Source: Okamejei kenojei (Eukaryota). Taken from it: a DNA stretch of 64,000 bases. Shown in pieces: positions 2,229 to 62,244 of this stretch. Within the stretch, counting starts at the first letter, position 1. Each line of letters starts with the position of its first letter. The stretch lies in NCBI GenBank assembly GCA_035221665.1, contig CM069161.1, positions 868,001 through 932,000 of the forward strand, given 5' to 3'. The notes below the pieces were generated by a model, which was not told the DNA's origin, made no database searches, and saw only the letters and a list, made by a program, of their open reading frames with translations. Made by a program: the position numbers and the translations under genes.

Positions 2229-3769
2229 ATGTTATCTAAATTGTATTAGTTGTTTAAGTTATGACATCGGATGGACGCTGCATACCAAATCTCATTGTGC
2301 ATATGTGCAATGACAATAATATATTATTATTGTTATTATTATTAATTATACAGCTGTATCACAATGTCCGACGTCTGTCCTCAATCTCCTTCCCAATGAA
2401 CGCAAGTGTGTCAAATGCCTTCACCACTCTGCCCACCCAACTTGCCACTTTCAAGAAACCATGCACCTGTACTCCCAGATCTGTGATCGATAACACACTC
2501 CAGGCCTGTGCCATTTACTGTGCACGTCCTAACTTGGTTTGACATACCAAAGTGCAACACCTCACACTTGTCAGCGTAGCTAATTCAAGGTATCAACTAA
2601 TATCTCTTTTCATTCCATTCTAAATAAAGAACTCTGTTGATTCTGTTTTGACTTGCGTTACATGTATGCTCAGAACAGGTTTTCCCAGACTTCAGCCAGA
2701 GGTGGAGTGGAAGAGATCCAGAGCACGATCTGGTCCTGCAAACCTGGGACTGCACCCGACAGAATCTGGTGCCCATCACCAACACCCCAAAGAGAAAGCT
2801 GTGTGGCATGGGTTGGGCACAGTTCTGTGGCCAGGGGCCAAATCATGAACGTGGACAGTGTTGCTCAACCACAACTGATTTCAATCTTTCCACCATGACT
2901 CTTGGGTTCCTGCTGTCTGCTACAAGCCCCTCCAATGCACACAGAATCCCCAAATACACCCTGCATCTGATAAAGCAACGAGCCCAGGGCCAAAGCAAAG
3001 TCTAATCGCCAGACCCAGTGTTACTTGTGTGGTCTTGCCTGCTGCATGATTTAACTTGGCTGCAGAATAGAGAAGAGCAGCAGGGTGGCTGATAAATACC
3101 ATCAGAAACAACACCAGAGATTACAACACAACATAAAATTACACTAATCTTCCAGTCCAGAAATAATAAACCAGGACTGCTCACACCAGCAGCTGTAACT
3201 AGATCGAGTAAACTGACCACAGGGTCTTCCACTACAGCCTGGTCTGGGACTATTGGCCAATCCTGCACATGGAACCTTGGTGCAAGATAACCATTCCAGA
3301 ACTCCCACGTCAGTGGAGAAACAAAATCATTTGGACGAACTGGAAATTAAAAACAAAAATACCGTGAACTTTAAGGATTTTTCTTTATTTACCTGGCAAA
3401 GCATCGACAAATAACAAAAGTCCCTTCACACAAGACAGCGGACGGGTGCAATTCAGGAGTAAGACTATTCCAAAAGCTAAAATCTACAGATGTGGGATAT
3501 ATAATGAAATAATATATAATATATAATGAAAGAAATATAGAAAATGCTGGACATATAGATCTAGAGGCAGATGCAGTGTGATTAACATGTAATAAAATTA
3601 CAGTTTCAGCTTTTCATAATCATGCGCACACCACTTGTATGGAGAACCCAAAGGTCAAGAGGGAATCTACATTATGTCAGCCAGTGGACACTGGTGGAGC
3701 CCGTGCACTTGGAGGGAGGGGTCTAGAAGTTTGGCTCTTTTAAGAGTTTAGGTGACAAGGATAGGATAA

Positions 3770-5960
3770 AACAGCCCACCCTGGACTTCCACACTGGACC
3801 CCCCACTCTCCACCCTATCTACTTTCCAGCTTCCAACAGTCAAAGAAATAACTAAACTCATCACCAAGTCCAAGAACTCCTCCTGCCTGCTTGATCCCAT
3901 CCCTACTGTCCTGGTTAAATCCTGTCTGCCCTCTATCTCACCCATCATATCGTCCATAATTAACTCCTCCCTATTAACTGCTACTGTCCCTACATCTCTC
4001 AAAACAGCTTCTGACACCCCGATTCTAAAAAATACAGGTTCTGATCCAAACAATCCAAATAACTGCCGCCCCATCTCCAAGCTCCCATTCATCACTAAAC
4101 TTCTGGAAAGGACAGCAGCGACACAACTTCAAGTCCACCTTCAAAACAATAACCTCTATGAACCATTTCAGTCCGGTTTTCGCCACAATCACAGCACTGA
4201 AACAGCCTTGGTAAAAATTACAAATGACCTCCTTCTCGCAGGTGACACGGGCCACTTATCCATCCTGATCCTCCTCGACCTCACTGCAGCCTCTGACACC
4301 ATCTCCTCCTCGACCTCACTGCAGCCTCTGACACCATCTCCCCCTCGACCTCACGGCAGCCTCTGACACCATCTCCTCCTCGACCTCACGGCAGACTCTG
4401 ACACCATCTCCTCCTCGACCTCACGGCAGCCTCTGACACCATCTCCTCCTCGACCTCACGGCAGACTCTGACACCATCTCCTCCTCGACCTCACGGCAGA
4501 CTCTGACACCATCTCCTCCTCGACCTCACGGCAGCCTCTGACACCATCTCCCCCTCGACCTCACGGCAGACTCTGACACCATCTCCCCCTCGACCTCACG
4601 GCACTCTGACACCATCTCCTCCCTCGACCTCACGGCAGCCTCTGACACCATCTCCTCCTCGACCTCACGGCAGACTCTGACACCATCTCCCACCCAATTC
4701 TTCTGGAACGTTTATCTGCCACCGGCATCAACAACAACGCACTACTTTGGTTCAGGTCCTCTCTACACGACAGAAAACAGTTCATCCAGGGAAATAAAGT
4801 CACATCCACAACTGCCACAGTCACCCATGGTGTTCCGCAGGGATCGGTGCTGGGGCCACTGCTTTTTATCATCTATATTCAACCGCTTGGCAATATTCTC
4901 CGTCATTTTGGAATCAATTTTCACTGCTACGACGATGATACACAACGTTACCTCTCCACAAAACCAACACCTCCCTTCCCCCAACTGCCCGCACCACCTG
5001 TCTTCAAGCTATCAGCAACTGGATGTCACTCAACCTTCTAAAACTCAATGGAAATAAAACAGAAATCATGCTAATTGGCTCAAAGTCCACACTCTCCAAA
5101 ACCCACCCGTTCCCATTTCAGTTGATGGCTCACCCATACCCACCGCCTCCCATGTCAAAAGTCTCGGCGTCATTCTGGACAATACACGTTCCTTTGGCCC
5201 CCACATCAGCAATATCACACGCGCTGTATACTTTCATCTCCGCAACTTCTCCAGACTCCGCCCCTCCCTCTCCAAAGACAATACAAAAGTCCTCATCCAC
5301 GCTCTGGTCACATCCCGCATCGATTACTGCAACGCCCTCCTCACTTGCATCGCCAATAAACTTCTTTATCGCCTCCGATGCATTCAGAACTCTGCAGCCC
5401 GGATCATCACCCGCGCCAGATCATCGGACCACATCACACCCATCCTCACTCAGCTCCACTGGCTGCCTGTGCACCAAAGGATTAACTACAAGATTTTACT
5501 GCTGACCTTCAAGCCCTACACCACCTTGCTCCCCAATACCTCTCTGACCTGCTGCTACCATACACTCCTTCCCGGTCACTTCCTTCCTCCTCTGCTGCAA
5601 GTTTAACTGTCCCCACATTTAGACTCAGCACCATGGGTGCCAGAGCCTTCAGCTGCTCTGCCCCACGTCTCTGGAACACTCTGCCACCTCCCATCCGTCA
5701 CCTGGACACTATCCATCAATTCAAATCACAACTCAAAACACACCTGTTTAGATTAGCATACCCGACATAACTGCCACCATGTCCACCCTGATTTTAATGA
5801 CTTAAAATGTTTGTGTATTTTTGCTTTTGTTTTTGTTTTTTGTTTTTTAATCAACTTGATTTTAATATTGATACTGTATTGTGATTTTATGTCCTGTAAG
5901 GTGTCCTTGGGTGTCCAGAAAGGCGCCAGCAAATAAAATGCATTATTATTATTATTATTA
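3770..5960 (+). mobile_element. L2-clade LINE, 5'-truncated and decayed (RT and C-terminal domain), with an (ATT)n tail
   Basis: [56 protein letters not shown] (YADD site), SRIDYCN and LHWLPV; ends aaataaaatgc(att)n. Confidence 0.9.
4271..4689 (+). repeat. 35-bp minisatellite, about 12 copies, inside the L2 RT domain
   Basis: Unit ctcctcgacctcacggcagcctctgacaccatctc starting at 4271, 4306, 4341 and so on, with no spacers. Confidence 0.95.
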
Positions 5961-7132
5961 AAATATTGGTGGTGATCGGTGACAGATTGGGGAGCCTGGT
6001 CTGAGGCAATACTGGGATGGGCAGCGGGCCCAGTGTGGGATTCATGCACGATGCTGATACACTTGGCAGCCATCAGAGTCTGGTGTTACAACAGTGAAAG
6101 CTACCTCCATGGCGTGACCAGTACAATGTGGCCCATGTATTTCTCATTACTCCAGTACAGAGAATCCAGGAGGAACAATCCCATCCGTCTCGGACAGTTG
6201 CAATATCGTAAATTGCTTGTTACCACATATGTAAAATCTAGAACGATACAGCAAAGGCCCTTCAGCCCACTGAGGCCATGCCAGCCATCAGACATACACT
6301 GACACCAATCCAACACTAATCCCACTCTACTGTTCCTCACATTCCCAACAACTGCCCCTTACAGTCCATCACTCATCTACATGTTAGGGACAATTTACAA
6401 TGGTCAATAACCTACTGATGAGTGATATGTGGAGTTTACATGTTTTTCCTGTGATTGTATGGCTTTCCCCAATGTGCTCTGGATTCCTCTTAACATCCCA
6501 AAGACATGAGGCTTGGTAAATTAATTTGACATTATAAATTGTTTTGAATGTGTGGCTGAGGGATAGAATGAGGGGAGAGTTGATGGGAATGTGGCGTGAG
6601 TACAGAATGAGATTAACATAGGATTAGTGTAAACATAGGGTGGTTGATTGACCCATGGTCTCTGCTCTTGTCCTTCAGTTCTACGATTTGCATGGATTCT
6701 GTATGCTGGATTTCGTCCCTACCCAAGATTGTTGGTGCCTCTCTGACACAACGGGATCCGTGAAATGCCGCTTCAAAGGATTTGACATCCATGTGCATCG
6801 TTGTGGTATTTTGAGTTCAGCAGGGAACCAAATTTGTTCCACTGAGGTTGAACATAATGGAAGCAATGCCCTTGGTTCTGGCAGTGAGAATCGTCTCTGG
6901 TACTGTGCACACAATCAGCAACATGCTCCAGGCTGCTGGCGGAGTTGGGACTCCCAGCCTCCCAGGGAGAGCTCATAAAAGTCACGTCGAGATGTCATTG
7001 TTGAGAAACCCATTTCCAGCCAGTCAGTTACACTAGTAACAGTGACAGAGATACAGACCCAAACCCTATTCTCTTACTTCAGTGGAATTGAGGAAGCTAA
7101 AGATAGTGCTGCCCAGCAGGGTCTTGAGTCAG

Positions 7133-7521
7133 GCAGGAGAGGGTGGAGGGAAGGAGGGAGCGTGGGGGAGGGTGGGGGGGAAGGAGGGAGAGGGTGGGGG
7201 AGGAGGGAGGGAGAGGGGTGGGAGGGTGGGGGGGAGGGAGAGGGTGGGGAGGGAGGGAGAGGGTGGGGGGGAGGAGAGAGGGTGGGGGGGAGGAGGGAGG
7301 GGTGGGGGGGGGAAGGAGGGAGAGGGTGGGGGGAGGAGGAGCGGGTGGGGGGAGGAGGAGGGAAGAGGGTGGGGAAGGAGGGAGAGGGTGGGGGGAAGGA
7401 GGGAGAGGGTGGGGGAAGGAGGGAGAGTGTGGGGGAAGGAGGAGAGGTGGGGAGGAGGGAGAGGGTGGGGGAAGGAGGGAGAGGGTGGGGGAAGCAGGGA
7501 GAGGGTGGGGGAAGGAGGGAG
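7133..7521 (+). repeat. Purine/G-rich degenerate ~20-bp tandem repeat (GGGAGAGGGTGGGGGAAGGA)n
   Basis: Read directly from the sequence; it generates the spurious Gly/Pro-rich ORFs in all frames. Confidence 0.9.
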
Positions 7522-8560: not shown

Positions 8561-9055
8561 CTGTCACCCAATCTGTAACATTGGCCATGTTATTCTCTCT
8601 CCAGGGTCATTTGTACAGCTCTGCATTTCACCGCTTTTTACATTTCTTTATTATCAAACAAATGATCCCTCCCATCACAACTACATCACTTAATTCACAG
8701 ATTATCACTGCAACCTTGGCCTGTTTGAGAGATACTTTCTTTATCCCAACCAGCCCTCCCAACTAACTTGTTTTCACAGATTCCCTAGTTCTGATGGAGA
8801 GTGTTTGACTGAAACATGAACTCTCCTGCCCTGTCAGTAGATGCTGCCCGACTTGCTGAGTGATTCCAGCATTTTGTGTTTCACATTCAACAACACTTAC
8901 AGTCGCTGGAATTCTGATTAGCATCAGTTTGCGCTGTGACCTCTGGAGGGCACAATTCAGAGAGACAATCAATATTGTAGCACCCGACCGCACAGTGAAT
9001 GAGCAGCTGACCACACTCACCCCAGCTCACCCATGCCCATGCGCCAGGTCCTTAC

Positions 9056-9286
9056 CATCTTTCCTGTAGTACAGCAGTTCTACTTTCACCTCTTCCGACC
9101 CCAGCAGAGCCTGTGCCAGCTGTGCCACAGCACTCTCTGGGGTGGCTGGTCCAGTCAGGAAGTCACAAGTGCCTGGTTTCTGCATGATCTCGACCCGGGA
9201 GTAGCCGAACATTTCACAAAAGCCATCATTGCAGAAGATGATTGCACAGTTTTTCATTCGAACATTGATGATGAGAAACTTCCGAT
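9056..9286 (-). CDS. KCNH6: KCNH6 coding exon 2 (231 nt; PAS domain)
   Basis: Acceptor tctttctctcctag, then (N)[76 protein letters not shown](G), then a GTAAGG donor. In phase with exon 1. The 231-nt length matches ERG exon 2. DFLTGPxTPxSAV and LYYRKD are erg2-like. Confidence 0.93.
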
Positions 9287-9319
9287 CTAGGAGAGAAAGA
9301 ACAGGAATTACACAGAGGT

Positions 9320-9659
9320 TAAGGGCTTGGACACGCTAGAGGCAGGAAACATGTTCCTGATGTTGGGGGAGTCCAGAACCACGGGTCACAGTTTACGAAT
9401 TAGAAGTAAGCCATTTAGAACGGTGACGAGGAAACACTTTTTCTCACAGAGAGTGGTGAGTCTGTGGAATTCTCTGCTTCAGAAGGCGGTGGAGCCAGGT
9501 TCTCTGGATGCTTTCAAGAGAGAGCTAGATAGGACTCTTAAAAATAGTGGAGTCAGGGGATATGGGGTACTGATTGGGGATGATCAGCCATGATCACATT
9601 GAATGGAGGTGCTGGCTCGAAGGGCTGAATGGCCTACTCCTAAACCTATTGCCTATTGT
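9320..9659 (+). mobile_element. CR1 3' fragment with a probable 7-bp TSD (cagaggt)
   Basis: GESRTTGHSL...FFSQRVVSLWNSL ORF2 C-terminus plus 3'UTR; cagaggt at 9313-9319 and 9660-9666. Confidence 0.87.
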
Positions 9660-12336: not shown

Positions 12337-12450
12337 GGGTCAGAAGAAGGGTCCCGACCCGAAACGTCACCTATCCCTTTTGTCCAGAGATGCTGCCTGA
12401 CACACTGAGTTACTCCAGCAATTCGTGTCTATCTTTGGTATAATCCACAG
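12337..12450 (+). mobile_element. Penelope-derived terminal repeat fragment with a hammerhead-like motif
   Basis: gggt-cagaaga-agggtcccgaccc-gaaa-cgtc-acct followed by gatgctgcctga...gagttactccagca. Confidence 0.7.
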
Positions 12451-23114: not shown

Positions 23115-23239
23115 GTGTAGACACAAAATGCTGGAGTAGCTCAGCAGGACAGGCAGCATCTCTAGAGAGACGGAATGGGTGACATATCGGGTCGTGACTC
23201 TTCTTCAGGCTTAAACCAGCATCTGCAGTTCTTTCCTAC
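23115..23239 (-). mobile_element. Penelope-derived mini-insertion with a 14-bp TSD
   Basis: tcagtttatattgg at 23101-23114 and 23240-23253; internal inverted junction. Confidence 0.75.
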
Positions 23240-26200
23240 TCAGTTTATATTGGACAATGCTCAGTTTCATTTGGAACTCATCAAGGCAATGCTACATGCA
23301 GCAAAATCAAAACCTCGTTCCCGCATGGGCTGGTAAACAGCAAGGAACTGATGCTGCAAAGAGTCATCAGAGCATTATGCTTCAGAAAATTAACTGGACC
23401 ATCACTAAATACCATGGCCTCAAGAGCAGGTCAGAAGCTGGGTATCCTTCGGTAAGTGACTCGTAAGGTATCGTAAGGTCCTCCCAACATCTACAAAGTC
23501 AAATGTCTACTGGGATAATGTTAGAATGAATGAAGCTCGAACAACATTGGAAAATCTTAACACCATCCAAGACAACATAGTTCACCAGAACAACAGCCCA
23601 TCCAGCACCACCCCTCCATTCATCATTCACTTTCACCATCCAAGGCAGCATAGTTCACCTGAACAGCAGCCCACCCAGCCCCACCCTCCATTCACCATTT
23701 ACTTTCCTCCACTAGCAGTAACTGGGGCTGCAGTATTTACCATCAGCAGTACCTGCTAAGTGAGCTAACTGTACCACCAGGACAGAAACAGCATCACTTG
23801 CATCTTCCCACAAGTTACAGGTACATGCCAGTTTCACTTGAGAAAATACATTTTTGTTCCCCAAGCTTAGGTCGGTCAAAATACAAGAATGTCTGCACCT
23901 GGGTTCAGAACAAACCTCAACATGCACTGTAGCAGTTCAAGGTGGTGCCGGTCAGTGTCTGTGAGCTGGAAGAAATGGGCATTAAAGCATGGATTTTCCA
24001 ATGATTCCACATCCCACAGATGACAATTTCACCATTGGATTCAGTCTGACTGCATTAGGCATCATCATGGATTGCATCCTGCAGGAGTACAACATTGATG
24101 GATGCTGAACTGCCACTGCACTAATAGATAGACAGCTGCTTGAGTATAACAGGTGTCCAGGCCTCGTGTTACAGAATCTATTAAAAATAAGGGGTTGTAA
24201 TTATATGATTAGGCAGAGACAATTGTTTTACGAAAGGCAAGTTCTGTTTCACATGGCAGACAAGACACACAATACTTTGCCCAGTTCGCTAGCAAGGACA
24301 TGCTTTGGCTTAGATACAGCGCGGCACAAATAGACTGATTCACGCATGGCAATATTGACCAGAGGAGAAATTGAGACGGTTTGGTCTGTATCCATCAGAG
24401 CTTAGTATCAAAGGACAATATCGGTGGGTACAGGTGTATCACCAAGTATTGCAAAGCAGAATTGGCTGCAGGCCCAGTGGATCACACGGGGGATCAGGTA
24501 CTGGTGGGTGCCAGTCTGACACTGCAAAAACATTGACATAGTGCACAGACAATCACAGTGAATGAGGCAACTGTGGGGAAATGACCATCACATTGTTAAC
24601 CCTAACATTTCTCGTTGTTTGCTGTACAAATATCTCATTGCAGAAATATTTGCACAGCACCGTTGGGTTCCAATTGACCGCTGTTTAATATTGGATTAAA
24701 CCAAACTAGAGTGTATGCTTGGAGTGAATGGTACTGTGTAAATATATCTGTAATAGTGAGAATATAATAATGAAAATCATTTCTCATTCTTCCAGTGCTA
24801 CAGACCTGGTGCATGTGCCCAACATTTCCAATGTTTATTCCACTGGGTGTGGTCTATCAGTCCACAATGGGGTTACAGCTGCAACATCCTAACCTCTCAA
24901 ACAAGAGACATTAATATTCAAATCTAATGTTACCTCGGGCATTTACAGGATAATGTAAAGAAAAATTGTTAATGGGGAATAATGAAATACACAGATTATA
25001 CAGAAGGAGGAGGACTGGGCTTTTTGGTGCCTTCCCTCAGTGTGAGCGATTCTGCTGTGGGGGGTGTTCATGTTGAATCTTATAGTGTATTGTGTCTTTT
25101 TTTATTTTTTCTTTTACATTGATGTATGGAAATCTGATTTCTTCTCTGTAAAGCACTTTGGCTTCACCGTGATTTGATTTTAAAGAGCTATATAAATAAA
25201 AATTACTTACTTAATTATAATTTAATCTCAAAGGCACCATTAATTAACTACAAATACAGGAGTAACTATAGTCTAATGGGGGTAAGGAATGTAAAGTAAT
25301 TATTAGTGCAAGTAGTGGTAAAATTAATGGGGCTGAAAGCTCTCGTTAGCTTGGGTCCAAAACTATGGAAATAGCACATGGTCTTGCAAAATTCCTTCAA
25401 TTCTCCAATGGGGGCAATAGCAGTGTTTAATAAAGGAGTGAACAAACCGCTGACCAGGCAGCTAGACTGTAGTGGCAAGCATTTAAAACTATATTGAACA
25501 GACATATGAAAGGGAAATTCTGAAAAATTCACATTCTTTTAATGATGACACTAGGAAATTAGTTGCAGGGAAGCAATGAATGCGAATCAGGATGTCCCAA
25601 TGGCATCTAATAGAAGTACAATATATGGGTGGAAGGTGATATAAGAACAGAAGGGGGAATTGGGTAAATTTGGGTATTTTCGACACAATATATACACGTG
25701 GAAGGAACGCTGAACTTTATTGCAGAGAACAATGGTATGGGAAATGTGGTCACCGCCACTAAGAAGAGCTAGACTCGGCTCATCCACAGTGCAAAATCAC
25801 CACATTGATTCCAATGAAGAAAGATTATTATGATCAGATATCCTGACCAAGGAGAATGGTCCTGTAGTTACTGGAGCTTAGAAGAATGTGGAGTCATCTG
25901 ATTAAAAGATTCAGATAGGATGAAGGCAGGATAGTTAGAAGACAGCTTTCACTTTACTCTGACTGGAGTCTACTATGGTGCGCAGGGTCCTTGGCGCTCT
26001 CCATGTCCTGGCCTGTGCGTGATCAGATGTTGATCTAAGAGTTCCTTATGAGCAAAGAATGTTTCTAACTCCATCCCTTAAGATACAAGAGTTACTCCCA
26101 AGAGCTCCATTGGCAGGTCCAGGCACAATGCTGTACAAAGTCTCATCCCAAGGCGCAGGCCTCTGATGGTATACATCTGAATATATAGGGAGCTACAGGT

Positions 26201-29149: not shown

Positions 29150-29880
<731 letters not shown>

Positions 29881-31758
29881 AGATTACTTGTGAAACTCGT
29901 GCTGAATTCCGAGTACATGCTGGACGTGGGTCAAGCAGAGGTCATGCCAACTCCAGCAACGAGCTTAAAGGGGAACAGCCCACATGGGAATAATGGGTGA
30001 CCCTCTTTATGCAAGTGTGCAAACATACAACGCAATAGAGGTTATTTTTCCAGGAGGACAGCATCGCCTAGCGTGTAACTCCAGCACGGATCCAGAGGAG
30101 AGTCTTCACTTCCAGCTGTCCATGTAGACAGCTCCACGTTAGTACTCTATTTCCAAACGACCATGGTTTTTAAGGGGGGGGGGGTGGTTGGAATGTGTCT
30201 ACATATACACGTTTAAAAATAAATTGCTCCACTGCGCTCTTGAGACAGGGATGCTGAGGAACTTTTCCCAACCCATCCGCAGTGACAGCACCACCGGCGC
30301 AGAGTGCAATGTCCTTAGCAATGTTGAGGCCAACAGCGGGGACAGGTACAGATAGTAAGGCTCGAGTCCTACTCGGGTGCCTTCACGCTGCCAGATCAAA
30401 TACTCAGAATATCTACAACAATAATTGAAAACTGCGTGACCCTTGCCAAACAAACGCCCCCCCCGCATGAGATCTCACAAGGTGACCGCGGAATCAACTG
30501 CTATTGTGCCATCAAACACTAACATTAGCGGCGCAGATTAGGTCAGATGCTGCATGAGGCTAGTTATTTCTAACATTCACAAGCAATCTCACGCAAATAC
30601 AAAATCATACAATCATAAATAAATATGAACTATGAATCAGTTAAATAAAAATCAACACAATTCCTACTACATGGTTGGAAAGCTTTCTCTTCCCCACCCA
30701 CACACAATCGGTCTGAAGGAGGGAGAAGGGTCCCGACATAAACCGTCACCTATACATGTTGTGCAGAGATGCTGCCTGATCAGTTGAGTTACTCCAGTAC
30801 TTTGGGTCCTTTCCCCCCTCCCCTGATAAGTATACCACAGGTCAGGCAGGGGTGAAAGCATCTTCTACCCAACCCAACACATCGTTTTAAATCAGTGTTT
30901 ACTCGTTGTGGTCGGATACTGCAGGCCAGGCCACATCTGTTGAAAGAGAAACGGTTGATGTTTCCAGGTCAAAGACTTTTCATCAGAACAAATTAGTTTC
31001 AAGTTGCAGAGAAAGTGTGAAAGGGAAAGTAGGACTAGGGGAATATCTAATAGGGTGGCCTTGGCGTTTCCATCAGGATCAGTATCTGGTTATGGGTTTG
31101 TGAGAGCCATCAGGGAGACAAAGCACCACTAATAGGGGTAAACCTTGCACTTTAATGATCAAGTCCCACAGAAGTTAATATTTGAAGATACTTTGCTGCT
31201 GATTGTTCACTTTGGCTCAACCAATGGTCAGAAGATTCTGCATTCATGTGCATCCCTTCAAAGCCTTCATCTTAAAAATCACATATTTAAAATCAAGATT
31301 CAAAGTTCCCTGAGCTCGCCATGGTCAATGCGTGCATAATGGTTGGCTCAGATTCGTTGAGCTGAAGACCTAGTCTCCATGATATGCATCTACGACAGGA
31401 ATGCAAGCTGTGAAGTGCGGAACGATGTGAAATTCTCAGGTCAGGCCATGTTTCTGGAGAGAGAAAATGTGGTCAATATCACAGATGAATGACCACTGGC
31501 CCGACACAGAGAAAGTGAGTTACCTGACCTTCTGAAATTCAATGCATCCAAAAGATTGAAATATGTACATGGACTATTATCAAATTTCACAACTTTGGGT
31601 AAGATCCTGTTCCTCGCTATAGTCAGGCACAAAGCTAGAAACCGAGTGTGAATTGCTATTTAAAGTGGCAGGAAATTGGAAACTCAAAGTTTTTGGTTTG
31701 TAGATACAGCATTGAAACAGGCCCTTCAACCCACTCTGTCAGTGCCAAACATCGATCA

Positions 31759-31948
31759 ATGTAGGAAGGTACTGCAGATACTGGTTTAAACCAAAGATTG
31801 ACACAAAAAGCTGGAGTAACTCTGGAACAGGCAGCATCTCTGGAGAGAAGGAATGGGTGAATCGGCGACCCGAAATGTCACCCATTCCTTCTCACCAGAG
31901 GTGCTGCCTGTCCTTCTGAGTTACTCCAGCTTTTTGTATCTATCCACG
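31759..31948. mobile_element. Palindromic Penelope-derived mini-element with a 9-bp TSD, nested in an HE1-like SINE
   Basis: catcgatca at 31750-31758 and 31949-31957; arms of about 60 bp are reverse complements of each other. Confidence 0.75.
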
Positions 31949-33529
31949 CATCGATCATCCGTGCACAAGTTCTTTCCTACACACTAGGGACAATGTATAG
32001 ATGCCAATTAACCTCCACATCTTTGGGGTGCCCCTGAGGAGAGAATAGTGGTGTCCACAAAGTGGTCACTCAGCATTTGTTGCTCCAATGTGAAGGAGGC
32101 AACATCGTGAATGCTGAATGGAGCACACCGAGACTGGAAGAAATCAAAGTGAGCAATGGTTGTTTTTTTGTTCAATGTGCTGGAGGAACTTTGCAGGTTA
32201 GAGAGCATCTGTGCCATGAAATGCATGGACAACATTTCAAATCAGGACCCTTATTCAGACTAATGGAGTAAGGAGGGAAAACAACTGAAAAAGAGGAGTA
32301 GCAATGGGACAATGCCCGGCAAGTGATAGGTGGAGATCGTGACAAAGGCATGAGGTGAAATGGAGTCAAAAGGATTCAAGGAAAGGGGAGTGAAGGGATA
32401 TGGGTGGAAGGGAAAACTCAGAGTAGGGACTGTCTCGCCTATCTATGCTTCTCAATTTTATATACTTCTATTATTTCTCCCCTCAGCCTCTGACACTCCA
32501 GTGAAAACAATCCAAGTTTGTCTAACCTCTCCTTATAGCTAATATCCTCTAATCCTAGCAGCATCCTGGTAAACCTCTTCTGCCCCTCTCCAATGCCACC
32601 ACACCCTTACAGTATTGGGATGACCAAAACTGCACACAAACTCCAAATGTGGCCTAACCAAAGTCCTATAAAGCTGCAACATGACTTCCTGACTCTTATA
32701 CTCAATGTCCAGACCTATGTTACGTGAATAAGCGAACCAGTTATCTTTTACCTCCTGCCTACCGATTGCAATGAATAATGCTTTCTAGTCAGCTGCATTA
32801 TGCTGAAGGTAAGAGCAACAACATCCAAAAAGCTGGTCAGTGCGTTCAGGAATAAGTGGAAAATAAAATTATTTAGCCTTTGAATCATAAAAAAAATTCT
32901 GAAATCCATGAAACAATATATCACCACAAGTATAGACATTTCCTTACTTTCCAAAAAATACCTTTCTCATGTTGACTTCAGGGCAGCCATTTTTTAACAT
33001 CTTGCAAAATATAAATCTTTAAACCGCTCTCGATTTGAAAAGCCTTTGTATGATGCCAGCATCCAAAATATCACCTGTCTGCTCCACAGCCAGGTAGCCT
33101 TTCCTGTAACAGAGTGTAACATGTCAAAAGTTTCTCATTAACTCATATCAAGAGTTCCATCACACACTGACTGGAACATTCTGAACTAAAGGTTAAACTT
33201 CAAAACACCTCTGAAGGTAACACAGTTTTTAAAAAAAAGGTGGCTTGCATTACTTAACACATTTCCTAACCTTCAACAGTGAATTAAATACTTTTGAAGC
33301 ATTTTTCACTCGACAGAGTGAAGGTCATTGAACACAGGTCTGGTACCACAGACAGAGGTACCACATTCCCTCAGCATTGCACTGGACAGTATATTCTGCT
33401 TGCACTACTATTGTAGTCCTTCAACCCAAAACATTCTGACCCGGAGGCAACATTCTTTGTTGAGCCAGAGCCCATAACTTAGTTCTCACTTTGATCCCAA
33501 CAATCTCAATGTACCCAGGAAACAATGTG

Positions 33530-36130: not shown

Positions 36131-37669
36131 TGTACAGTTGGGGGAAGATACATTCTAAGCAGTGAAAATTGGCTGCTTACTTGGAGGGACACAGCCCTAG
36201 TCGGTCTTCACTATAGTTCCTGCAAAAGGTGGTCAAAAACTGCACTCTCTTTTCTGATCGATTTTAACCCTACAACACAATCTGCAACCTTGAAAGTGAT
36301 AAATGTTATTTTCTGTTGTACGGTATCATACAGATCCAGTCTGAAGAATGGTCTCGGCCAAAAACGTCACCCATTCCTCCCCAGAGATGCTGCCTGTCCC
36401 ACTGAGTTACTCCAGCATTTTGTGTCTATCTTCGGTTTAATCCAGCATCTGCACTTCCTTCTTATACATTAGACATATTCAAACAGCTAGCCTTGCGTAT
36501 ACTTTGTCATTTTAACTGTACTTATATCCAAATGTTAAAAAAGCACATATGTGTAGCAAATCTCAAATCTGAGCCAACCATAATGTTAGAAAGATGCTAA
36601 AAGAGTGGGAACCAAGTTTACTGTGTGGGTTACAGCTGCCTATAGACAGGCCCTCTGAGATCATTGTCAGTGACATGCCGTTTTTAATAGCCCGTTGATT
36701 GTGAGCTGCAGACGGTACAAACTAAGCTTTAACCTGGGAATGTGTTTAATTTGTTTTCACACTGCCCAATGGGTTAACTCCTTTTGTGTTATTTTGACTT
36801 GTCTGAGATTTCATTACTTCTTCTCTCACATCCGTGACAAAAGGCTGCAAGTTCAAGATCCGCCTCAGAACCGAGCAATCTGTGCTGTTACTTCAGGCTG
36901 CAATGCTGCATAAGAATTTAAGATGAGGCCCAGCTGCCTTTTTATTTATACATGAACTGGTTTTACAGCCATTTACAAGAGGAATATTTTCTTGTGACCT
37001 GGCACATCAGACCAAGAACTAGCAACACATCTCGTTTTCGGAGAAATGCTGCCTTTATGCATATGACACAAAGGACTGTATTTCAGATGCATTGCTGTTC
37101 CCTACCCTTCACATTCTCTCACTAGGAGTAATGATGTTGTACGAGGATTATCAGACCACCACCATAATGGGAGATTGGCAATTGCAATGGAGTTCAACTT
37201 TGCTAAACTTATCCAATACATTTAATTACTTCTTAATTTAATCACCTCTTGCGATAGTCTTGCCGTTAGCTTCTTAGTCCAAATTCTGGAATGCACCTTC
37301 TCCCTCTAGGATGTTGCTCAACACTCGTCCTCTTGCAGACAACCCAAGACTTACCTTGCAGCACCATGCGCACTCTGCTCGATTAATATTGTGACTTTAA
37401 GCATGTTGCTGTTGCATTTCCTCAATGGATGTAGAGGTCCTTTAATGTTTCCTGAATGACTGTCTAATGGCTGTTAAAATGAGGATTGCTGCTTGGAACT
37501 TTGGACCCTCAAATCCAAGGGCAGAGCTTGTTGTTTGCACACTGCATTGGTGTAGAACAGCTGAAGGAAACTAGTTAAGGTTAGGGCCGGGGCTGTCGCA
37601 CGACCCTGGACTTCAAGATTATTGAACGTGGAAAGAAGAGTGTTGGGGGGGGGTGGGGGTGGGGGGGTA

Positions 37670-46825: not shown

Positions 46826-47012
46826 GACGACAGGCACAAAAGCTGGGGAGAAGGAATGGGTGACGTTTCGGGTTGAGTCAGAACAAGCGTCTCGACCCGA
46901 AACGTCACCCATTCCTTCTCCTCTCCAGAGATGCTGCCTGTCCCGCTGAGTTACCCCAGTATTTTTGCGCCTAGCTTCGGTTTAAACCAGCATCTGCAGT
47001 TCCTTCCTACAC
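46826..47012. mobile_element. Palindromic Penelope-derived mini-element with a 12-bp TSD
   Basis: attactctgggg at 46814-46825 and 47013-47024; gagaaggaatgggtgacgtttcgggt is inverted against acccgaaacgtcacccattccttctc. Confidence 0.8.
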
Positions 47013-47546
47013 ATTACTCTGGGGAAGGCAGCAACATTTGACTAGGTATTAAAGTCTCAGGAGCTCTCTTGGTGGTGTGCCATAGGTTCTCTGGTCAGGA
47101 TTAGGGTAGACGCTGGTATTATGCTAATATTGAACCCACAATCATCAGCAGTCAAAAATACATTATCTACAAATTCTGGTGATATTTGTACAGAACAAGT
47201 TCTTCATATTCTGGGCAGAATTTTGCAATATTTGAATTGATGAAAGGCCTTGGTTAAATATGTCAGCCAGGGCAGAATTATGCCGAGCCAAAATGAGGAT
47301 GATTTGCTGCGATTGCTCTCCTTGAGTTAATATGCTGACTCGAAGGGCCGAATGGCCTACTCCTGCACCTATTGTCTATTGTTGAATTCCTGCAGTGCCC
47401 AGCACACCAGTGAACACCAGCGGGATTGTAACATCAGGAGTGAGGCCAACGCTGGGCAGAGGTGGAGAGATGGGGGCAGCACTAGGGAGGTAGAGATTGG
47501 ATCACTGCCTTATTTAAAGCTGGTGATATTCAATATGTCTACAAAC

Positions 47547-51611: not shown

Positions 51612-51819
51612 GATGTAGAATGCTACAGATGCTGCTTTGTACCAAAGACAGACACAAAGTGTTGGAGTACATCAACGGGTCAGGCAGCATCTCTCGAGAA
51701 ATAGGATCAATGACATTTTGGGTTGGGGTCCTTCTTCGGAAGAAAGGTCCCAACCCAAAACTTTTCTCTAGAGATGCGGCCTGACCCGTTGAGTTACTCC
51801 AGTACTTTGTCTATCTTTG
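51612..51819. mobile_element. Palindromic Penelope-derived mini-element
   Basis: Inverted arms around ccttcttcggaagaaagg; imperfect TSD gca(c/t)ggaggt at 51602 and 51820. Confidence 0.7.
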
Positions 51820-52901
51820 GCATGGAGGTAACGTTAGACTTGTTCCAAATACTGGTTCATATACCTCTGGAGTAATGCATCTACCTCTGGCCAGTACATT
51901 AGCAAGGCTGTGCACTTTGTAGACTGGGTGCAGAGGAGAGGATTTTGGCCGCAGTTAGACTGCCAAAGCTGGAGAAATGAACATTGGGAGATTAGATGGG
52001 GTGGATAGGATAAATAGTGGGTACCTATTCCCATTGGAAATGGGTCAAAGGCCAGGAAGCATAAAGTGCATGGCAAAATATACAGGTGGGATGTCAGGAA
52101 AACAATTGATTAAAGAAAAGTGAATAAGCTCTGAAACTCACTGGCTGCAGGAGTGGTGGAAAAATAGACACAACAAATTGCAAGGTCATATGAAGGAAGC
52201 AATTTGCAAGTCCCTGGGGAAATAGCTGGCACGGAGGCCAAATAGATTGCTCTTCAAAGAGCTGATGGCCCCCTGTGACTTAATGATTCAATTTCTTACA
52301 CATTGAAACTGACAGTTTTTTGAAATATAATTTCCGGATTCAGCCTGTTACCGTTCTTTTGCTGCACGACATCAAACAAGATGCCAGCTGCAGAGGAGAG
52401 CACCGTCTACACCAGTCACATTCAACTTTCCCTGCACAGTTTAGCTCCAGAGCAGTACTCCCTCAGGTCTCCACCAAAATCCCCACCATTTATAATCCTT
52501 TCCCACCTCGCCAGGTCTGTGCAAGGCTTTAATTAGGAATGTTCACAACTGACGATCGATACACAAGGGAAAAAAATTGTTCTCTTCGGCTGAACTAATT
52601 GCAGGACAGAATAATTGGCTGCAAATTGTCATTGCCTCTGCATATTCTCCTGCGGAACTGGATGTGTAGAGGGGAATGCCATGGCAATCAATATCAGAGC
52701 CAATTTAATTGCCCAGTGGTGTCATCCTTTCCAACGAGAAGAGGAATTCTTAACTAGAAGTAGAGGATAAATAGACATTAAATGCTGAGTAACTCAATGG
52801 GTCAGGCAGCATCTCTGGAGAAGAAGAATAGGTGACTTATTTTGTAGGCGACTTCGTTACCTGGAGAGGTCCCCCTGCCCCCGTTCCCAGGGAGAACTCA
52901 C

Positions 52902-55123: not shown

Positions 55124-55262
55124 CTGAAGGATGAAGAAGTGGGAACAGGTCAGACATGCTCTAGAATTCTCAACCACGTACTGGAAAACCCGATCAGACC
55201 TGTAGCCGTGCTTCTGCTCGCTGCAGGCCCACCTCTGGCCTCAGTGACTTGAGTCTCCTTAC

Positions 55263-55358
55263 CTCATCATGGACTTTCTTCAAGAAGTCAATCTCATCCT
55301 GCAAGGAATCGATTTTCCGTTCCAAATCAATCCGAACCAAGGCAGCATCATCAACATC
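55263..55358 (-). CDS. GFAP: GFAP exon homologous to exon 3 (96 nt)
   Basis: [32 protein letters not shown]; cctcag acceptor and GTAAGG donor. Confidence 0.94.
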
Positions 55359-55451
55359 CTGAGGAAATGAGGATGGAGAGCACAGAGTTAGGTACACCAC
55401 AGCATCGGGAATGTTGGGATTTTGAGTAAAAATGAAGTGCTGGAGGAACTT

Positions 55452-55749
55452 TGCATGGTGATGCAGTTACTGTCTTGCAGTGCCAGAGATCCAGGTTCAA
55501 TCCTGACTACGGGTGCTGTCTGTACAGAGTTTGTACATTTTCCCCGTGACTGCGTGGCTTTCTCCTGGATGTTCCAGTTTCCTCCCACGTTCCAAAGTTG
55601 TACAGGTTTGTAGGTTAATTGGCTTCAGTAAAGATTGTAAATTGTCCCTAGTGTGTAGGATAGGCTGGTGTATGGGGGATGCTGGTCAGCGCGGACTTGG
55701 TGGGACGAAGGGGCTGTTTCCATGCTGTATCTCTAAACTAAATTAAACT
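55452..55749 (+). mobile_element. HE1-like SINE inserted into a Penelope-derived terminal fragment
   Basis: Splits gctggaggaact|cagcgggccaggcagcatc; has a V-domain and a taaac tail. Confidence 0.78.
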
Positions 55750-56056: not shown

Positions 56057-56185
56057 CTGAAGAAGGGTCTCGACCTGAAACGTCACCCATTCCTTCTCTC
56101 CACAGATGCTGCCTGTCCCGCTGAGTTACTCCAGCTTTTTATGTCTGTCTTCGGTTTAAACCAGCATCTACAGTTCCTTCCTACA
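56057..56185 (+). ncRNA. Minimal type I hammerhead-ribozyme-like motif in a Penelope-derived terminal repeat
   Basis: CTGAAGA-A-GGGTC-TC-GACCT-GAAA-CG-TC at 56057-56084: CUGAnGA core, helix II, GAAA, palindromic ACGU and a UH site. Activity is not demonstrated. Confidence 0.6.
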
Positions 56186-56831
56186 CACTTCTTTCATTAC
56201 TCAATCTTCTTGAGTTACCTACATTTCATTGTACATGCCCTGCACTTATTGGAACACCTTAAATTACACCACCTCTCACTTATTAAGATTAAATTCCCTC
56301 TGTAATTGCTCTATCCAATTTACCAGTTGATCATTCTCATACTGTAACCTGACTACCAACTGTTCCTCACAAGATGAATTGAGCACTGACTCATACAGCA
56401 TGGGAATAGAATACTCATCTCCCTACAGACCAGTGGACACCCATTCATGTTAATCCCATCTTCCGGCACCTGGTCCCCTGGCCTTCTAGGCCAAGGTGAT
56501 TTGAGTCTCAACCCTTTGTTGTGTTAAAGCAACCAGTAGTCATATCTTTGAACATTTAAACACTGCTTTTGACAAATAGGATGTAGTGGATCATGTCTTT
56601 GGGCATCAGGAGGGTGTGCTTTCTGCAAAGAGCAGCTTCCAGCCAGTTCATTCTCCTATCCAGGTGCCCCATTAATGACCCTGGGCATTATCCCCGACAC
56701 TGCCCTACACATTGGATTAACACGCACAGATTCCAATTCTGCTCCGCCACTCGCCCAACTCATTCCCAGTCCTTCCTCAGCGCCGCGACATGCGGTTTTA
56801 TCCAAGGAGACTCCCGTCCACCATTTCGCAC

Positions 56832-56892: not shown

Positions 56893-57196
56893 CTGTAGGT
56901 CAGAATTTAAAGGTGAATGCCTTTGTTCAGTCCGTTAAAGAGTGAGAAGTTTGCTGACAACTGCAACAGTTTAGGCTTTAAAAGAAGAGCATGTCAACTC
57001 TCAAAGCCTCCAGGCTTCCAACCAGATGCTCATCTCTTATATATAATCTTCCTTCTAAGAGTTACTAACCCGGAATCCCTATATTTTCAGATAGGGTGGA
57101 GATCAGGATGTCCTATCCTAGAGAGCTGTGTCTATGCTACCCGGATGCCCCCCCCCATACATTGGGTGGCTCCTACCTGGGACAGGTGGGCCATAC

Positions 57197-57604
57197 CTCT
57201 GTTTCAGGTTGTTGTGGTCATCCAGCAGGCTGTCCCTCTCGATCTCCAGGCGAGCCTTGGCGCTGTTCAGCTGGTCCATCTGCTGCCGCAGTTCCCTGAT
57301 CTCGTCCAGGTACATCTCCCCTAGCCGGCTGGGCTCCTTCCCCTTGATCTGGTTGAGCTCGGTGGCCAGGACCTGGTTCTGGTTCTCCAGGAAGCGCACC
57401 TTCTCGATGTAACTGGCAAAGCGGTCGTTCAGCTCCATCATCTCAAACTTCTCGTTGGTTCGAGTCTCCTTGAACTCTGCGTTGAGGGCATCCGACAGGG
57501 AGAAGTTGAGCTTCTCCTGGTACATCCCTGCAACTTTAGTTGGGTAGTTAACGTGTTGTTTCATTCGGACCACAGAGCTTCTGGAGGAGACTGGTAGAGT
57601 AGAC
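57197..57604 (-). CDS. GFAP: Glial fibrillary acidic protein, first located coding exon (C-terminal part of head, coil 1A, start of coil 1B; 408 nt)
   Basis: ...[47 protein letters not shown]...[10 protein letters not shown]...[28 protein letters not shown] is the GFAP coil-1A signature. Donor AG|GTATGG at 57196. The 5' boundary is taken at the acceptor tttactttcttgcacag (57605) and is less certain than the rest. Confidence 0.9.
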
Positions 57605-58735
57605 CTGTGCAAGAAAGTAAACTCACCAATCAACAAACGTTTGTTTAATTTTAACTCTTCCCTCACCTCTGGTATAATTGTATTGGCATCCCAAATGTAC
57701 ATAGCAGAGATCGCCAGGCTGCTAATAACTTGACCATGCTTCTCCAAATCGTGCACATTACTGTCACATCCATCCTAATGTATAGTGCCCAGATTGGACT
57801 GTGGCGGTCCCTGGGCATTAAGCCACTCCTTGGGTCATCTCCCTCGGCTATTGAGGGACAGGGGCATTGGTCTGCCATGGGGTTTCCCGAGGTCCTTCTC
57901 GGGGGTGTGTGTGTGTTCTCGCTGTGACATTAAAAACTACTGTTGAGCCTGCCTGACGTCTGGCTTTTTCCCGACCTCATCCAGGCCGCTACAGAACACT
58001 ATATACACTGGTTTGACCACAGCTAAAATGTCATCATGCTCTTGAATTATTTGGCATTGTTAAAAGCCCAGTATGCTTTATTTCAAATGCTTCTTAACAT
58101 GTACTTTCAATGAATCATATGAAGGCGGCTGAATGTTCATTCTTTTAACCCCTTTAGAATCGTGCTCTCTGTTTTATATTGGCTCTTCTTAATCTTCATA
58201 CCACAATCACATTTCCCAGCAATTACTTACATCTGCCTTCCAAATGCCCATTTCACTAGGCTGTCCCCATAGTCCTGTTATCTTTCTTCAATGAATAACT
58301 TTACATTTCTCCCATTATGCACCATCCTGGCGTCCACTGTGGCCTTATCATGTGGCTTGGTGCTGCTTCTGATGCACCTCTTACTGCGGTGAACCAGGGA
58401 ACCAAGCATTCACTGCACATAAATGCACAGAAACTGTGTAGGAATGAATTGTAGATGCCGGTTTACACCAAAGATAGACGAAAAAACAAGGAGTAACTCA
58501 GCGGGTCAGGCAACATCTCTGGAGAAAAGGAATAGGTGGCATTTTGGGTTGAGACTCCTCTTCACATTCTCACAGAGCTACATCCAAGCATCAGCCATGT
58601 GATTACATTGTCCTCAAACACAGAAAGCCTCATGTAACAATGTTTGACATGCCCTTTTATCAAAATCCTTTTGAAAATCTAGGTAACTACATTCACCAAT
58701 TACTCTCATCAACACAGAGAGATATATCTGCAAAT

Positions 58736-59455: not shown

Positions 59456-61539
59456 AATTGCTCAATTAACAAATTACCAATGGACCTTCATGAAATCATG
59501 GGGCCTCTGGACAAGCAGATGATGATTTTCTGAACATTCTTCGACTATGTACTTATTGATCTTCTCGGCCACTGGTGTTAAGCTAATTGGTCTGCAGATT
59601 CTCATTTTCTCTCTGCATCCTTTCACGATCACAGTGTTACATTTACTGTGATAGATGTGGTGTCCCAATGGAATACACTCGCATCATCCTACAAAACATG
59701 CCCCAATGGGATTGCTCCAATTATTGCAGCACAAGATAGTGGGATGGATAATGACACACTGCAAGATGTCTCCCTTTCGATATGTAGTGCCTGCATTGTT
59801 ACAGAACCTCATCCCAAACACTGCATGGTTTGTAGTCATCTGCAATTATTTAAACATTTTCATTTGCAGCCAGCCATAGATTATACACTCGATGCATTGC
59901 ACAAAATGTCCCTTTTGAAGTAAAAATAATCAGTTGCCTACAGATCCAATTACACAGTACTCACTAGTGACGGACAACTTTATTTCTTCCATAGTGAAAC
60001 ACCCGAACCAATAATCTGGGGCCATTTTGTTACACTCTGCAATAGTCAACGAGAAACGTTATTTGGAAGGCAGGTTTGGGGCTGATATACGTGGGGTAAT
60101 TCATTCCCAGACCACTCTTCATATACCAGGCTGCTCAAGGTGCTCAGCTTTGTACATTTCCCAGGCAATTAGGTCCTTCAAAAGCTACACTTGTCTGGGA
60201 CCTCCGACAGGCAAGTTCTTTACATTCCATATCCTCACCAAAGGACTAATCCAGCCAACACCTGACGGCCCCCAGATACTCTGAACTCACAGTAGGCTAT
60301 CCTGAAGCCTCTTCACCACACCCCAAGGCCCAGTCCTCAACTCTCAGATCAGATGCTTCAACCTCCAAATATCACCTGGCCCTGGTACGGCAAAATACCT
60401 CTTCTCACACATCCCTCACCACCATCCCCACTCCTCATCTTGAGTACCTGCATCTGATTCCTCTCCTTCTGCCCAAAGGCTAACCCAAGGTACTGCCCAA
60501 ACACCAATGGCCACCAGCCATGTCAGCCCCTTCACCATATCCGGGTGACAGAATCTCCATTCCATTGTACTCCAGGTCTTCTGAAGTGGGGGGGGGGGGG
60601 GGGGCACCTTCTGAACAGAGGGGCAACAACTGTCACTTTCTTTTGTGTACCTTTTAGAGTTTGACGGACATGCTAGACCAACATGTTCTGTGTCAACATC
60701 TGGTCCAAAATCAACCTGCCATCGTCTGCTGTACTCCTCCAAGATAAATATATCCGTCTACATTGGCAAGAGAGACCAGTACACAATATTCCAACCCACT
60801 GCTTTGTTTTTGCTCTAGATTCCAATTCCACAGCCTTGAGTCTCCATGATATTCCAGCTACAATCTCAGCAGGGTTTTATATCATTGGAGTAAATGGGTG
60901 AGATGAGCCACGCCAACAGAATGTCTTTTACCCAAGGGTTCAGATTCTCGTTTGTTCCGTTTACTGGCAGAGAGGTGACTCGTCAGAGATTTGTGAGTCC
61001 TCAACATGATGTCAAAACCCCGGGTTAATAAAGCCATTATGGCATCAAATCAAACAAGGAAACCTTCTGGTGATCACTTTGGAGACCTTTGAACTATCTT
61101 TAATCAGGCTTTTTCTTGCACTGAATGATGTGCCCTTTGGCCTATATGTGTACTGTAATCATGTATGGTCTTTACGTTGACGGGATGGCAAGCGACAAAA
61201 AAGCTTTTCACTGTACACGTGACAATACGAAACTAAACTAAGAGTAAATGATATCCCACCTGACCTGGTCCTCCCCAATTTATCTGTTGCATTAAAGTAT
61301 TGGTATCACCCTTCATGTTATTGTGCAGTGTTATTACACATTGAATGGCAGCTACGGGACTCTTACACCAGCCATCCATTCCACAAGTGGCCAACCAGCC
61401 ACATCACAAATTTATGCTGCCACAACTCAAAACTGCACAACATAGCATTGCATGCCACAGCACCAAAACAGGCCCTGCAGCCCACTGTCCCACCTGACCA
61501 TCAACAGCCTATTTACGCTATGCCCCCCTCCCCAAAAAA

Positions 61540-61641
61540 CCACACACTGCTGGAATAACTCAGCAGGTCAGGCAGCATGTTTGGACAATATGGATCGGTG
61601 ACATTTCAGGTCAGTGCCCTTCTTCAGACTGATTGTGGGAG

Positions 61642-61673
<32 letters not shown>

Positions 61674-62244
61674 GAGGAAAGTTAGAAGAAAGGAGGGACA
61701 GGACAAAACCTGGCAATAATATGTGGACACAGGTGAGGGGGAGTCATCCTCTATTGTGAAGCTAGAGGAAGGAATATAGGTGGAAGGAGAGTTGGACGAG
61801 ATAAATATGTGCGGGTCTAGGTGGGGCACAGGGAAGGGGAGGGGGGTTTAATAAGGAGCAGAAAGAAGGGGGAGGTGGGGAGGGGGCATGCATCTGAAAT
61901 TGGAAAATTCAATGTTCAAATCATTAGGCTGTAAGGTACCCAAACGGAATATGAGGTGCTGTTCCTCCAGTTTGAATAGGGCCTCACTTTAGCAATGGAG
62001 TCCTTGTCCTGGACCTCCCCAACATCGGGAACAATCTTCCTGCATCTAGCCTGTCCAACCTCTTAAGAATTTTGTAAGTTTCTATAAGATCCCCTCTCAA
62101 TCTCCTAAATTCTAGAGAGTATAAACCGAGTCTATCCAGTCTTTCTTCATAAGACAGTCCTGACATCCCAGGAAGCCACATCGGGAACAACAGATGTCGT
62201 AGATGAGGTTAGAGGAGCTACACGTAAAACTCTCTTTTTGCACC
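61540..62244 (-). mobile_element. Penelope-like element 3' region (GIY-YIG remnant, spacer, hammerhead motif, terminus), interrupted by a CR1 fragment at about 62003-62190
   Basis: Minus strand: SFTCSSSNLIYDIC (62191-62232), KLEEQHLIFRLGTLQPNDLNIEFSNF (61897-61974) and CTGAAGAAGGGCACTGACCTGAAATGTC (61627-61600). Confidence 0.75.

Follow-up and report, generated by a model that had tools for sequence, protein, structure and literature searches.

A short repeat that recurs throughout 64,000 nucleotides of the skate Okamejei kenojei genome (contig CM069161.1; this whole stretch is called the window below) begins with a motif resembling the core of a minimal hammerhead ribozyme. This raises the question of what the repeat is, where its motif comes from, and whether its copies could cleave RNA. 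The reading favoured here, held at a probability of roughly 0.8, is that the repeat forms the 3′ end, or pseudo-LTR, of a Penelope-like element (PLE) with an endonuclease, and that the window copies are short insertions, or stubs, likely copied from uncut RNA and predicted not to cleave. The features concerned are collected in Table 1.

Copies in the window and the element behind them

Four copies had been singled out as the best ones in the original prediction (56057, 61600-61627, 12341 and 36341), and all four are present at these positions. The roughly 20 fragments counted by eye become 26 in a single-sequence nhmmer search and 28 with an iterated profile. Moreover, a 28-nt pattern allowing up to three mismatches has three matches in the window against none in 100 shuffles. 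Among the 28 fragments, only the 56057 copy holds an exact intact core, with a predicted cut site after 56084. Its helix II had been drawn as 5 bp with a 2-nt loop, which cannot fold; the actual helix is 4 bp with a 4-nt loop. Its closing pair, G10.1-C11.1, is turned into G-U (11.1 reads U, as in the old subfamily described below), and helix I is absent, the G before C3 facing the A after C17. The region folds with a z-score of -0.44, and no target-site duplication is evident at this copy. At 12341, the change of U4 to A and the 4-bp helix I (GGGT) are both confirmed, the helix being no trait of any subfamily but probably junction sequence. The 61627 copy has a broken fourth helix II pair and lacks the ACGU palindrome, and 36341 has lost G12. 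Thus none of the four supposedly best copies is a complete ribozyme, and the window copies are likely inactive.

Table 1. Positions of the repeat copies and related features. Coordinates refer to the window unless a locus is named.
Feature	Position	Strand	Context and details
Solo pseudo-LTR stub of the Penelope-like element, subfamily A, with 3′ "tail" extension	56057..56187	+	Intron 1 of type III intermediate-filament gene, antisense
Minimal hammerhead core	56057..56084	+	C3-A9, one extra A, helix II 56065-56076, GAAA, ACGU palindrome, GUC triplet
Solo stub, U4 changed to A	12341..12448	+	Inside ERG-type KCNH gene, antisense
Solo stub, G12 lost	36341..36470	+	Between KCNH and intermediate-filament genes
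Pyrimidine-rich 3′ UTR and hammerhead core (61600-61627), 3′ end of a 5′-truncated PLE	61534..61891	-	Behind endonuclease remnant
Broken C-terminal GIY-YIG endonuclease remnant, same element class, split by unrelated insertion	61892..62237	-	tblastn to L113 residues 1091-1196, E 1.7e-10
Head-to-head insertion: short inverted arm and full stub, 12-bp direct repeat at flanks	46844..47013
Head-to-head insertion, 14-bp direct repeat at flanks	23119..23245
Head-to-head stub pair	31760..31985
Head-to-head stub pair	51623..51822		In intermediate-filament gene intron
Older-subfamily copy (U at N7, longer helix I)	8790..8903	+
Older-subfamily copy	30919..30987	-
Direct repeats of L113	L113:2351-3247 and 6305-7202		Cores at 3153 and 7108, one in each
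Loci of the second PLE family	L076:3612-3675; L077:158-4149		G000:C43, ~10-35 kb from contig start

Two host genes, both on the minus strand, accompany these copies. One is an ERG-type KCNH gene (PAS exon 9030-9335, first exon at 29557), whose best solved-structure matches are KCNH2 and KCNH7; the other is a type III intermediate-filament gene with exons from 57774 to about 47500, including 57121-57774 and 55197-55466, which we take to be GFAP-like. The copies had been described as scattered through the introns of two neural genes. This holds in part, as 16 of the 28 fragments lie within the coding spans of these genes (10 antisense, 6 sense) but the other 12 do not, including 36341 and 61627. 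The 56057 and 12341 copies are antisense to host pre-mRNAs; in the case of 56057, placed in intron 1, the host pre-mRNA therefore carries the complement of that copy. The KCNH gene also contains, at 3770-5038 (+), fragments of another reverse-transcriptase element with RVT_1 matches.

The parent element was traced by walking upstream from the stubs; a genome search with the Pfam GIY-YIG model gave mainly another PLE family. In two of 30 close genomic copies (L010 and L015), the sequence upstream of the repeat is a pyrimidine-rich UTR, preceded in turn by the end of a GIY-YIG frame. In the full-length copy L113, a 1197-aa open frame with reverse-transcriptase (RT) and GIY-YIG domains lies between two core-bearing repeats of 898 nt that are 99.8% identical. 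Its Pfam matches (RVT_1 at E 5e-6, GIY-YIG at E 0.004) are both below the Pfam curated cut-offs, and its translation contains a CX4CX2C linker and CCHH cysteines. Direct repeats at 99-100% identity also occur in L114 (495 nt), L117 (179 nt) and L119 (583 nt). The L113 protein has 435 homologs at E<=1e-20, most among those listed having RT domains; the closest named homolog among the matches listed is a bamboo-shark protein with 69% identity, a finding consistent with a cartilaginous fish.

The window copies can be connected to this element directly. Over 128 nt, the 56057 copy has 93.75% identity with the 3′ end of locus L031, which continues upstream into the end of a GIY-YIG frame; the copy's identity with both repeats of L113 is 81-85%. 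Being nearer to L031, it is a member of an older sister subfamily. About 270 nt separate the 61627 copy from the broken endonuclease end (62237-61892) that precedes it. The suggested connection with PLEs is thus borne out by the L113 frame between core-bearing repeats as well as by the endonuclease remnant inside the window. This remnant is itself split by an unrelated insertion at 62005-62165 (-), presumably LINE-derived. As regards the young subfamily, all 90 of its 90 scored copies are 93-100% identical at the protein level over about 470 aa, and three copies have open frames of 1190-1197 aa, which indicates recent activity.

The scale of the family was estimated from 80 stretches of 10 kb (800 kb in all), placed by a fixed grid along the 44 largest contigs. 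This sample contains 354 fragments, amounting to 4.1% of its bases, against none in the reversed control. Extrapolation from these 80 stretches of the 44 largest contigs gives about 1.2 million fragments genome-wide (bootstrap 1.03-1.41 million). The exact intact-core pattern has 93,123 matches in the genome and none in the control; 22 intact cores occur in the sample, where 27 were expected, and 15 of these 22 keep a 2-bp helix I. These figures, together with the bamboo-shark homolog, agree with the proposal of a very high-copy chondrichthyan family. As for its description as a ribozyme-bearing family, the PLE minimal hammerhead is indeed there, but the copies are better called dead-on-arrival PLE ends than a ribozyme family in their own right.

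Descent and decay of the hammerhead motif

The motif very likely descends from a hammerhead. Clustering of 522 anchored copies resolves five readable subfamilies, and the CUGAnGA/GAAA core anticipated for the consensus is constant across all of them. The subfamily consensuses and L113 share CUGANGA, GAAA and the NUH triplet, with one nucleotide after A9 and the G10.1-C11.1 pair, position 11.1 being U in the old subfamily. The differences between subfamilies fall at N7, H17, loop II and the wobble positions of helix II. Helix I is longer in the old subfamily (4-5 bp) than in the young ones (2 bp), and its two strands differ between them in a matching way. The ACGU palindrome (15.1-16.1) is present in L113 and in the 56057 copy, and CpG decay has removed it in many others. 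A minimal type I hammerhead with an extra A after A9 and an ACGU palindrome, as had been proposed, corresponds to the PLE traits given in the available part of PMC4209133.

A different origin, as a chance look-alike or a mere promoter element with no hammerhead descent, is exceedingly improbable. It would account for the lack of an Rfam match, for folding z-scores that are not significant in the window copy and the L113 regions folded, and for the absence of two-sided helix II changes among subfamily consensuses, where changes are one-sided only. Against it, the motif agrees with all listed positions of the published PLE consensus and occupies the same place in both L113 repeats. In addition, the same core recurs in a second PLE family of this genome, where helices I and III are full and three of the four helix II pairs differ on both sides. 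The Rfam search that had been suggested yielded no hammerhead in the window at E<=5, nor in six loci at E<=10, and this null is uninformative because the complete hammerhead at L076, from the second family, was also missed. Two-sided helix II differences of the kind looked for occur between the two families, and covariation within this one is weak. Among 11 aligned copies, 87.9% of cells are paired versus 81.7% after shuffling, and the single two-sided change is found in the G12-less 36341 copy.

The second family is notable for its own structure. It forms tandem arrays of about 6.3 kb, many near contig ends (C43, C17, C11, C21), and has a separate 597-aa ORF1 overlapping a 759-aa RT and GIY-YIG frame. 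ORF1 gave no Pfam match, and from its motif its C-terminus presumably corresponds to an SGNH esterase. The amino-acid identity with the skate stub element is 31%. Its type I hammerhead is complete, with helices I, II and III of 8, 4 and 5 bp, and that of L076, at 3612-3675, might cleave as a monomer, the predicted minimum-energy fold being different.

Descent from a hammerhead does not imply that the dispersed copies are maintained as ribozymes. Non-CpG core sites are mismatched in 123 of 1541 cases (8.0%) and matched non-core sites in 370 of 5021 (7.4%), and G12 is changed in 78 of 270 dispersed copies, similar to other CpG guanines. Contrary to the expected conservation of the core, dispersed cores therefore decay like other sites. 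A descriptor that requires, besides the core, a helix II of 4 bp and a helix I of 2 bp retrieves 23 copies from the 800-kb sample, versus 0 in the reversed and 0-1 in the shuffled sequence, but none in the window. Helix II has a probability of at most 0.01 in the ensemble predicted for the 5′ region of L113, since the core, including GAAA, is occupied there by a competing hairpin and by pairing with the unit's 3′ end.

These results bear on the idea that dispersed copies are active ribozymes which cut host pre-mRNAs or form retrozyme-like circles, either as monomers or as dimers. The abundance of exact cores, the 2-bp helix I retained in most sampled ones, subfamily differences confined to free positions (N7, H17, loop II) along with a two-sided difference in helix I, and the existence of natural tandem cores would all suit such activity. 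The idea is nevertheless very improbable in view of the neutral decay, the failure of every window copy to match the descriptor, the competing hairpin of L113, and the antisense position of 56057 and 12341 relative to host transcripts. Furthermore, in the portions available of the published studies, monomers of minimal hammerheads were uncleaved and dimers weak (PMC4209133), and only one of nine frog dimers was cleaved (bioRxiv 2026.07.22.740005). The natural tandem is L313 (G000:C1:2018411-2018521), in which two intact cores stand 44 nt apart on the minus strand, at 2018411-2018482, together with an inverted arm, inserted in a GATA/GACA microsatellite; it is a candidate for dimer cleavage. 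If even a small share of the roughly 93,000 intact cores did cleave with the help of a protein, this would have a bearing on how intact pre-mRNAs remain in these fish.

Where the stubs begin and end

The geometry of the insertions gives information on how the stubs were made. Alignments start at model positions 1-5 in 208 of 354 fragments, a number that includes copies continuing upstream; near the cut site (positions 27-33) there are only 8 starts. For closer inspection 135 copies were anchored on C3, and 219 were omitted for having no clean core start or flank; both the anchoring and the alignment starts are biased toward copies with a recognisable core. The anchored set comprises 65 solo copies, 22 with an inverted arm, 16 matching the upstream UTR, 26 with other pyrimidine-rich sequence upstream, and 6 tandem or other copies. 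In the solo and inverted-arm copies, the sequence adjoining C3 does not match the upstream element. Base by base, the 65 solos agree with the element at 0.86 for T at -1, 0.66 for G, 0.57 for A and 0.35 for C at -4, and are at background from -5. Since the stubs contain the whole uncut core, their 5′ ends were not made by cleavage. Most short copies begin at one spot, which is likely the start of the element RNA.

Other properties of the insertions recall PLE mobilisation. Exact duplications of 8-16 bp flank 19 of the 65 solo copies, compared with 22 of 1279 mismatched control pairs, and lie 0-7 nt from C3 in 15 of the 19. The 3′ ends form two groups, at model positions 86-104 (140 of 354) and 121-130 (132), with 45 in between. 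Among the 98 adjacent fragment pairs in the sample, 54 are head-to-head, 29 tandem and 15 tail-to-tail. The two groups of 3′ ends correspond to the tail, and the head-to-head pairs to the inverted arms, that have been published as marks of PLEs. Downstream of the hammerhead, the subfamilies examined keep a long stem (L113:3200-3275; window 56105-56170), and the two 3′-end hotspots fall inside it and just past it. This stem is possibly a protein-binding or RT-start structure.

Whether the 5′ edge marks a transcription start is judged at about even odds. The edge matches the initiator consensus given in the accessible part of PMC5580651. Contigs from two other organisms, compared over L113:2560-3900, have loose ends at the same edge; contigs in all four public runs cover this region, although contigs cannot show starts and most of their "RNA" labels are guessed. 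A DPE-like spacing is seen in the young subfamily, but the shift of this element by 2 nt in the old one weakens its reading as a DPE. A cap-derived G at -4 is not evident (6 of 26). Among 30 copies that include the ORF start, 4 begin within -5..+6 of C3, 22 extend from 104 to >1300 nt upstream and 4 begin downstream, so that run-off from the start site is not the sole route.

The same edge admits two further explanations. In the first, the stubs would propagate themselves as a SINE-like non-autonomous family, transcribed from an internal Pol II promoter and copied again in trans by the PLE protein; each stub would carry an initiator at its 5′ edge and a downstream element overlapping the hammerhead. 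The sharp edge common to the subfamilies, its fit to the initiator consensus, the loose contig ends, the internal promoter of Penelope described in the part of PMC2377424 at hand, and a depth profile in which stubs far outnumber ORF-bearing copies are all compatible with this scheme. It is still unlikely, as both subfamily A and the young subfamily include copies that extend into the end of the ORF, and many stubs are without part of the initiator.

In the second, the edge would be a 3′ splice site, the pseudo-LTR intron ending at the AG before helix I, and the stubs would derive from splicing intermediates or spliced RNA. A pyrimidine tract and YAG do stand directly before the core in all subfamilies, and the intron end of D. 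virilis Penelope maps to the 5′ end of helix I, according to the available text of PMC4209133. On the other hand, solo copies share no upstream exon, their target-site duplications mostly lie next to C3 as given above, and the branch-point-like motif is just 1-4 nt from the AG in young subfamilies. Neither was a GT..AG joint found among the 15 joints listed of 274, which come from contigs only, in related organisms, with RNA status mostly guessed. Splicing is, on this evidence, decidedly unlikely as the source of the edge.

The interpretation of the stubs as run-off products may tentatively be extended into a full scheme. The PLE protein would nick host DNA and begin cDNA synthesis within the RNA itself, using either of two sites that lie about 90-100 or 125-130 nt beyond the core; internal starts of this kind have been shown in vitro for the anole element. 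Starting on the 5′ copy of the repeat, within the 5′ UTR, and running off at the RNA 5′ end a few bases before C3, it would produce stubs of 100-130 bp, and priming on both strands would give head-to-head forms. The hammerhead of the parent element would act, if at all, as a weak motif assisted by dimerisation or by protein, and it does not determine where the stubs end. A bolder reading, given less than even odds, takes the stubs as such run-off products with initiator, ribozyme and RT-start hairpin overlaid in one 130-nt module, in a genome whose roughly 93,000 intact cores and around a million stubs would represent the largest hammerhead-motif load found in print or here. If this is true, the stub ends show to the base where the PLE transcript begins and where both RT start sites lie, and also that the hammerhead stays uncut while the element is mobilised.

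Relation to known systems

Outside Repbase, Dfam and supplements, which may list it, no description of this skate family was found in the literature, and the main text of two skate genome papers mentions neither "Penelope" nor "ribozyme". The class to which it belongs is nonetheless well established. According to the portions available of Cervera and De la Pena (2014, PMC4209133), the extra nucleotide after A9, the ACGU palindrome, the idea of dimers and solo copies from truncated PLEs are all published for PLE minimal hammerheads. The skate motif agrees with them in CUGANGA and the one added nucleotide, in G10.1-C11.1, GAAA and the NUH triplet, and in having ACGU where helix III would be; like them, it is found in each repeat of a full element and, for the most part, in solo copies left by truncated ones. 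Helix II is short in the skate (4 bp, compared with 7-8 in the S. mansoni families of that article), and helix I of the young subfamilies has 2 bp, as in Drosophila, Culex and Oikopleura, most listed helices having 3-5. The skate count of intact cores is about ten times the 9,000 reported there for Xenopus, which was obtained by a different search. The portion of its supplement that was searched contains no cartilaginous fish.

Among elements with an endonuclease (EN+ PLEs), the skate element resembles the Neptune/Nematis type, as presented in the accessible part of Craig et al. (2021, bioRxiv 2021.04.23.441226). Common features include a single frame with RT and C-terminal GIY-YIG, a CX2-5CxxC linker, CCHH cysteines, partial tandem pseudo-LTRs, inverted 5′-truncated arms and a 30-40-bp tail. 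L113 contains both the linker zinc finger and the CCHH motifs, the likeness to this clade being one of motifs and layout. The skate protein differs in its length of about 1200 aa with a long proline-rich N-terminal part, and the stubs in occupying an estimated 4% or so of the genome. The role of PLE hammerheads is stated to be an open question in the same source.

The closest mechanistic parallel is the Poseidon element PAc of Anolis carolinensis (Frangieh et al. 2024), for which the available part of PMC11167929 describes a PLE protein that nicks and extends both strands and starts reverse transcription at two internal sites defining the tail. Hammerhead mutants leave insertion unaffected there, uncut RNA being the main template, and the protein assists hammerhead cleavage. 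The skate element presumably resembles PAc in its two internal RT start sites and tail, dispensable hammerhead, uncut template, and nicking and extension of both strands; protein-assisted cleavage, shown for PAc, would be putative in the skate. PAc represents a different PLE clade, and its ORF starts inside the hammerhead, unlike that of the skate element, where the first ATG lies about 160 nt downstream. The skate contributes a very large natural sample in which the cut site is hardly ever the starting point of an insertion and the starts instead cluster immediately 5′ of the core; this agrees with the lone in vitro study and gives a sharp prediction of the RNA start.

The stubs also share several traits with animal non-LTR retrozymes, which are PLE-derived, hammerhead-bearing and non-coding, and PLE-type hammerhead repeats are reported in one cartilaginous fish genome in the portion available of the same work (bioRxiv 10.64898/2026.07.22.740005). 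Retrozymes, however, are tandem arrays with a hammerhead in each unit, whereas skate stubs are mostly single or head-to-head. All window copies are of these two kinds, same-strand neighbours make up only the minority of sample pairs given above, and one two-core tandem was seen elsewhere. Overall, the PLE minimal hammerhead is an already known class, which this skate family joins; as the link between the ribozyme and PLEs is published, what is useful here is the scale of the family and the geometry of its insertions.
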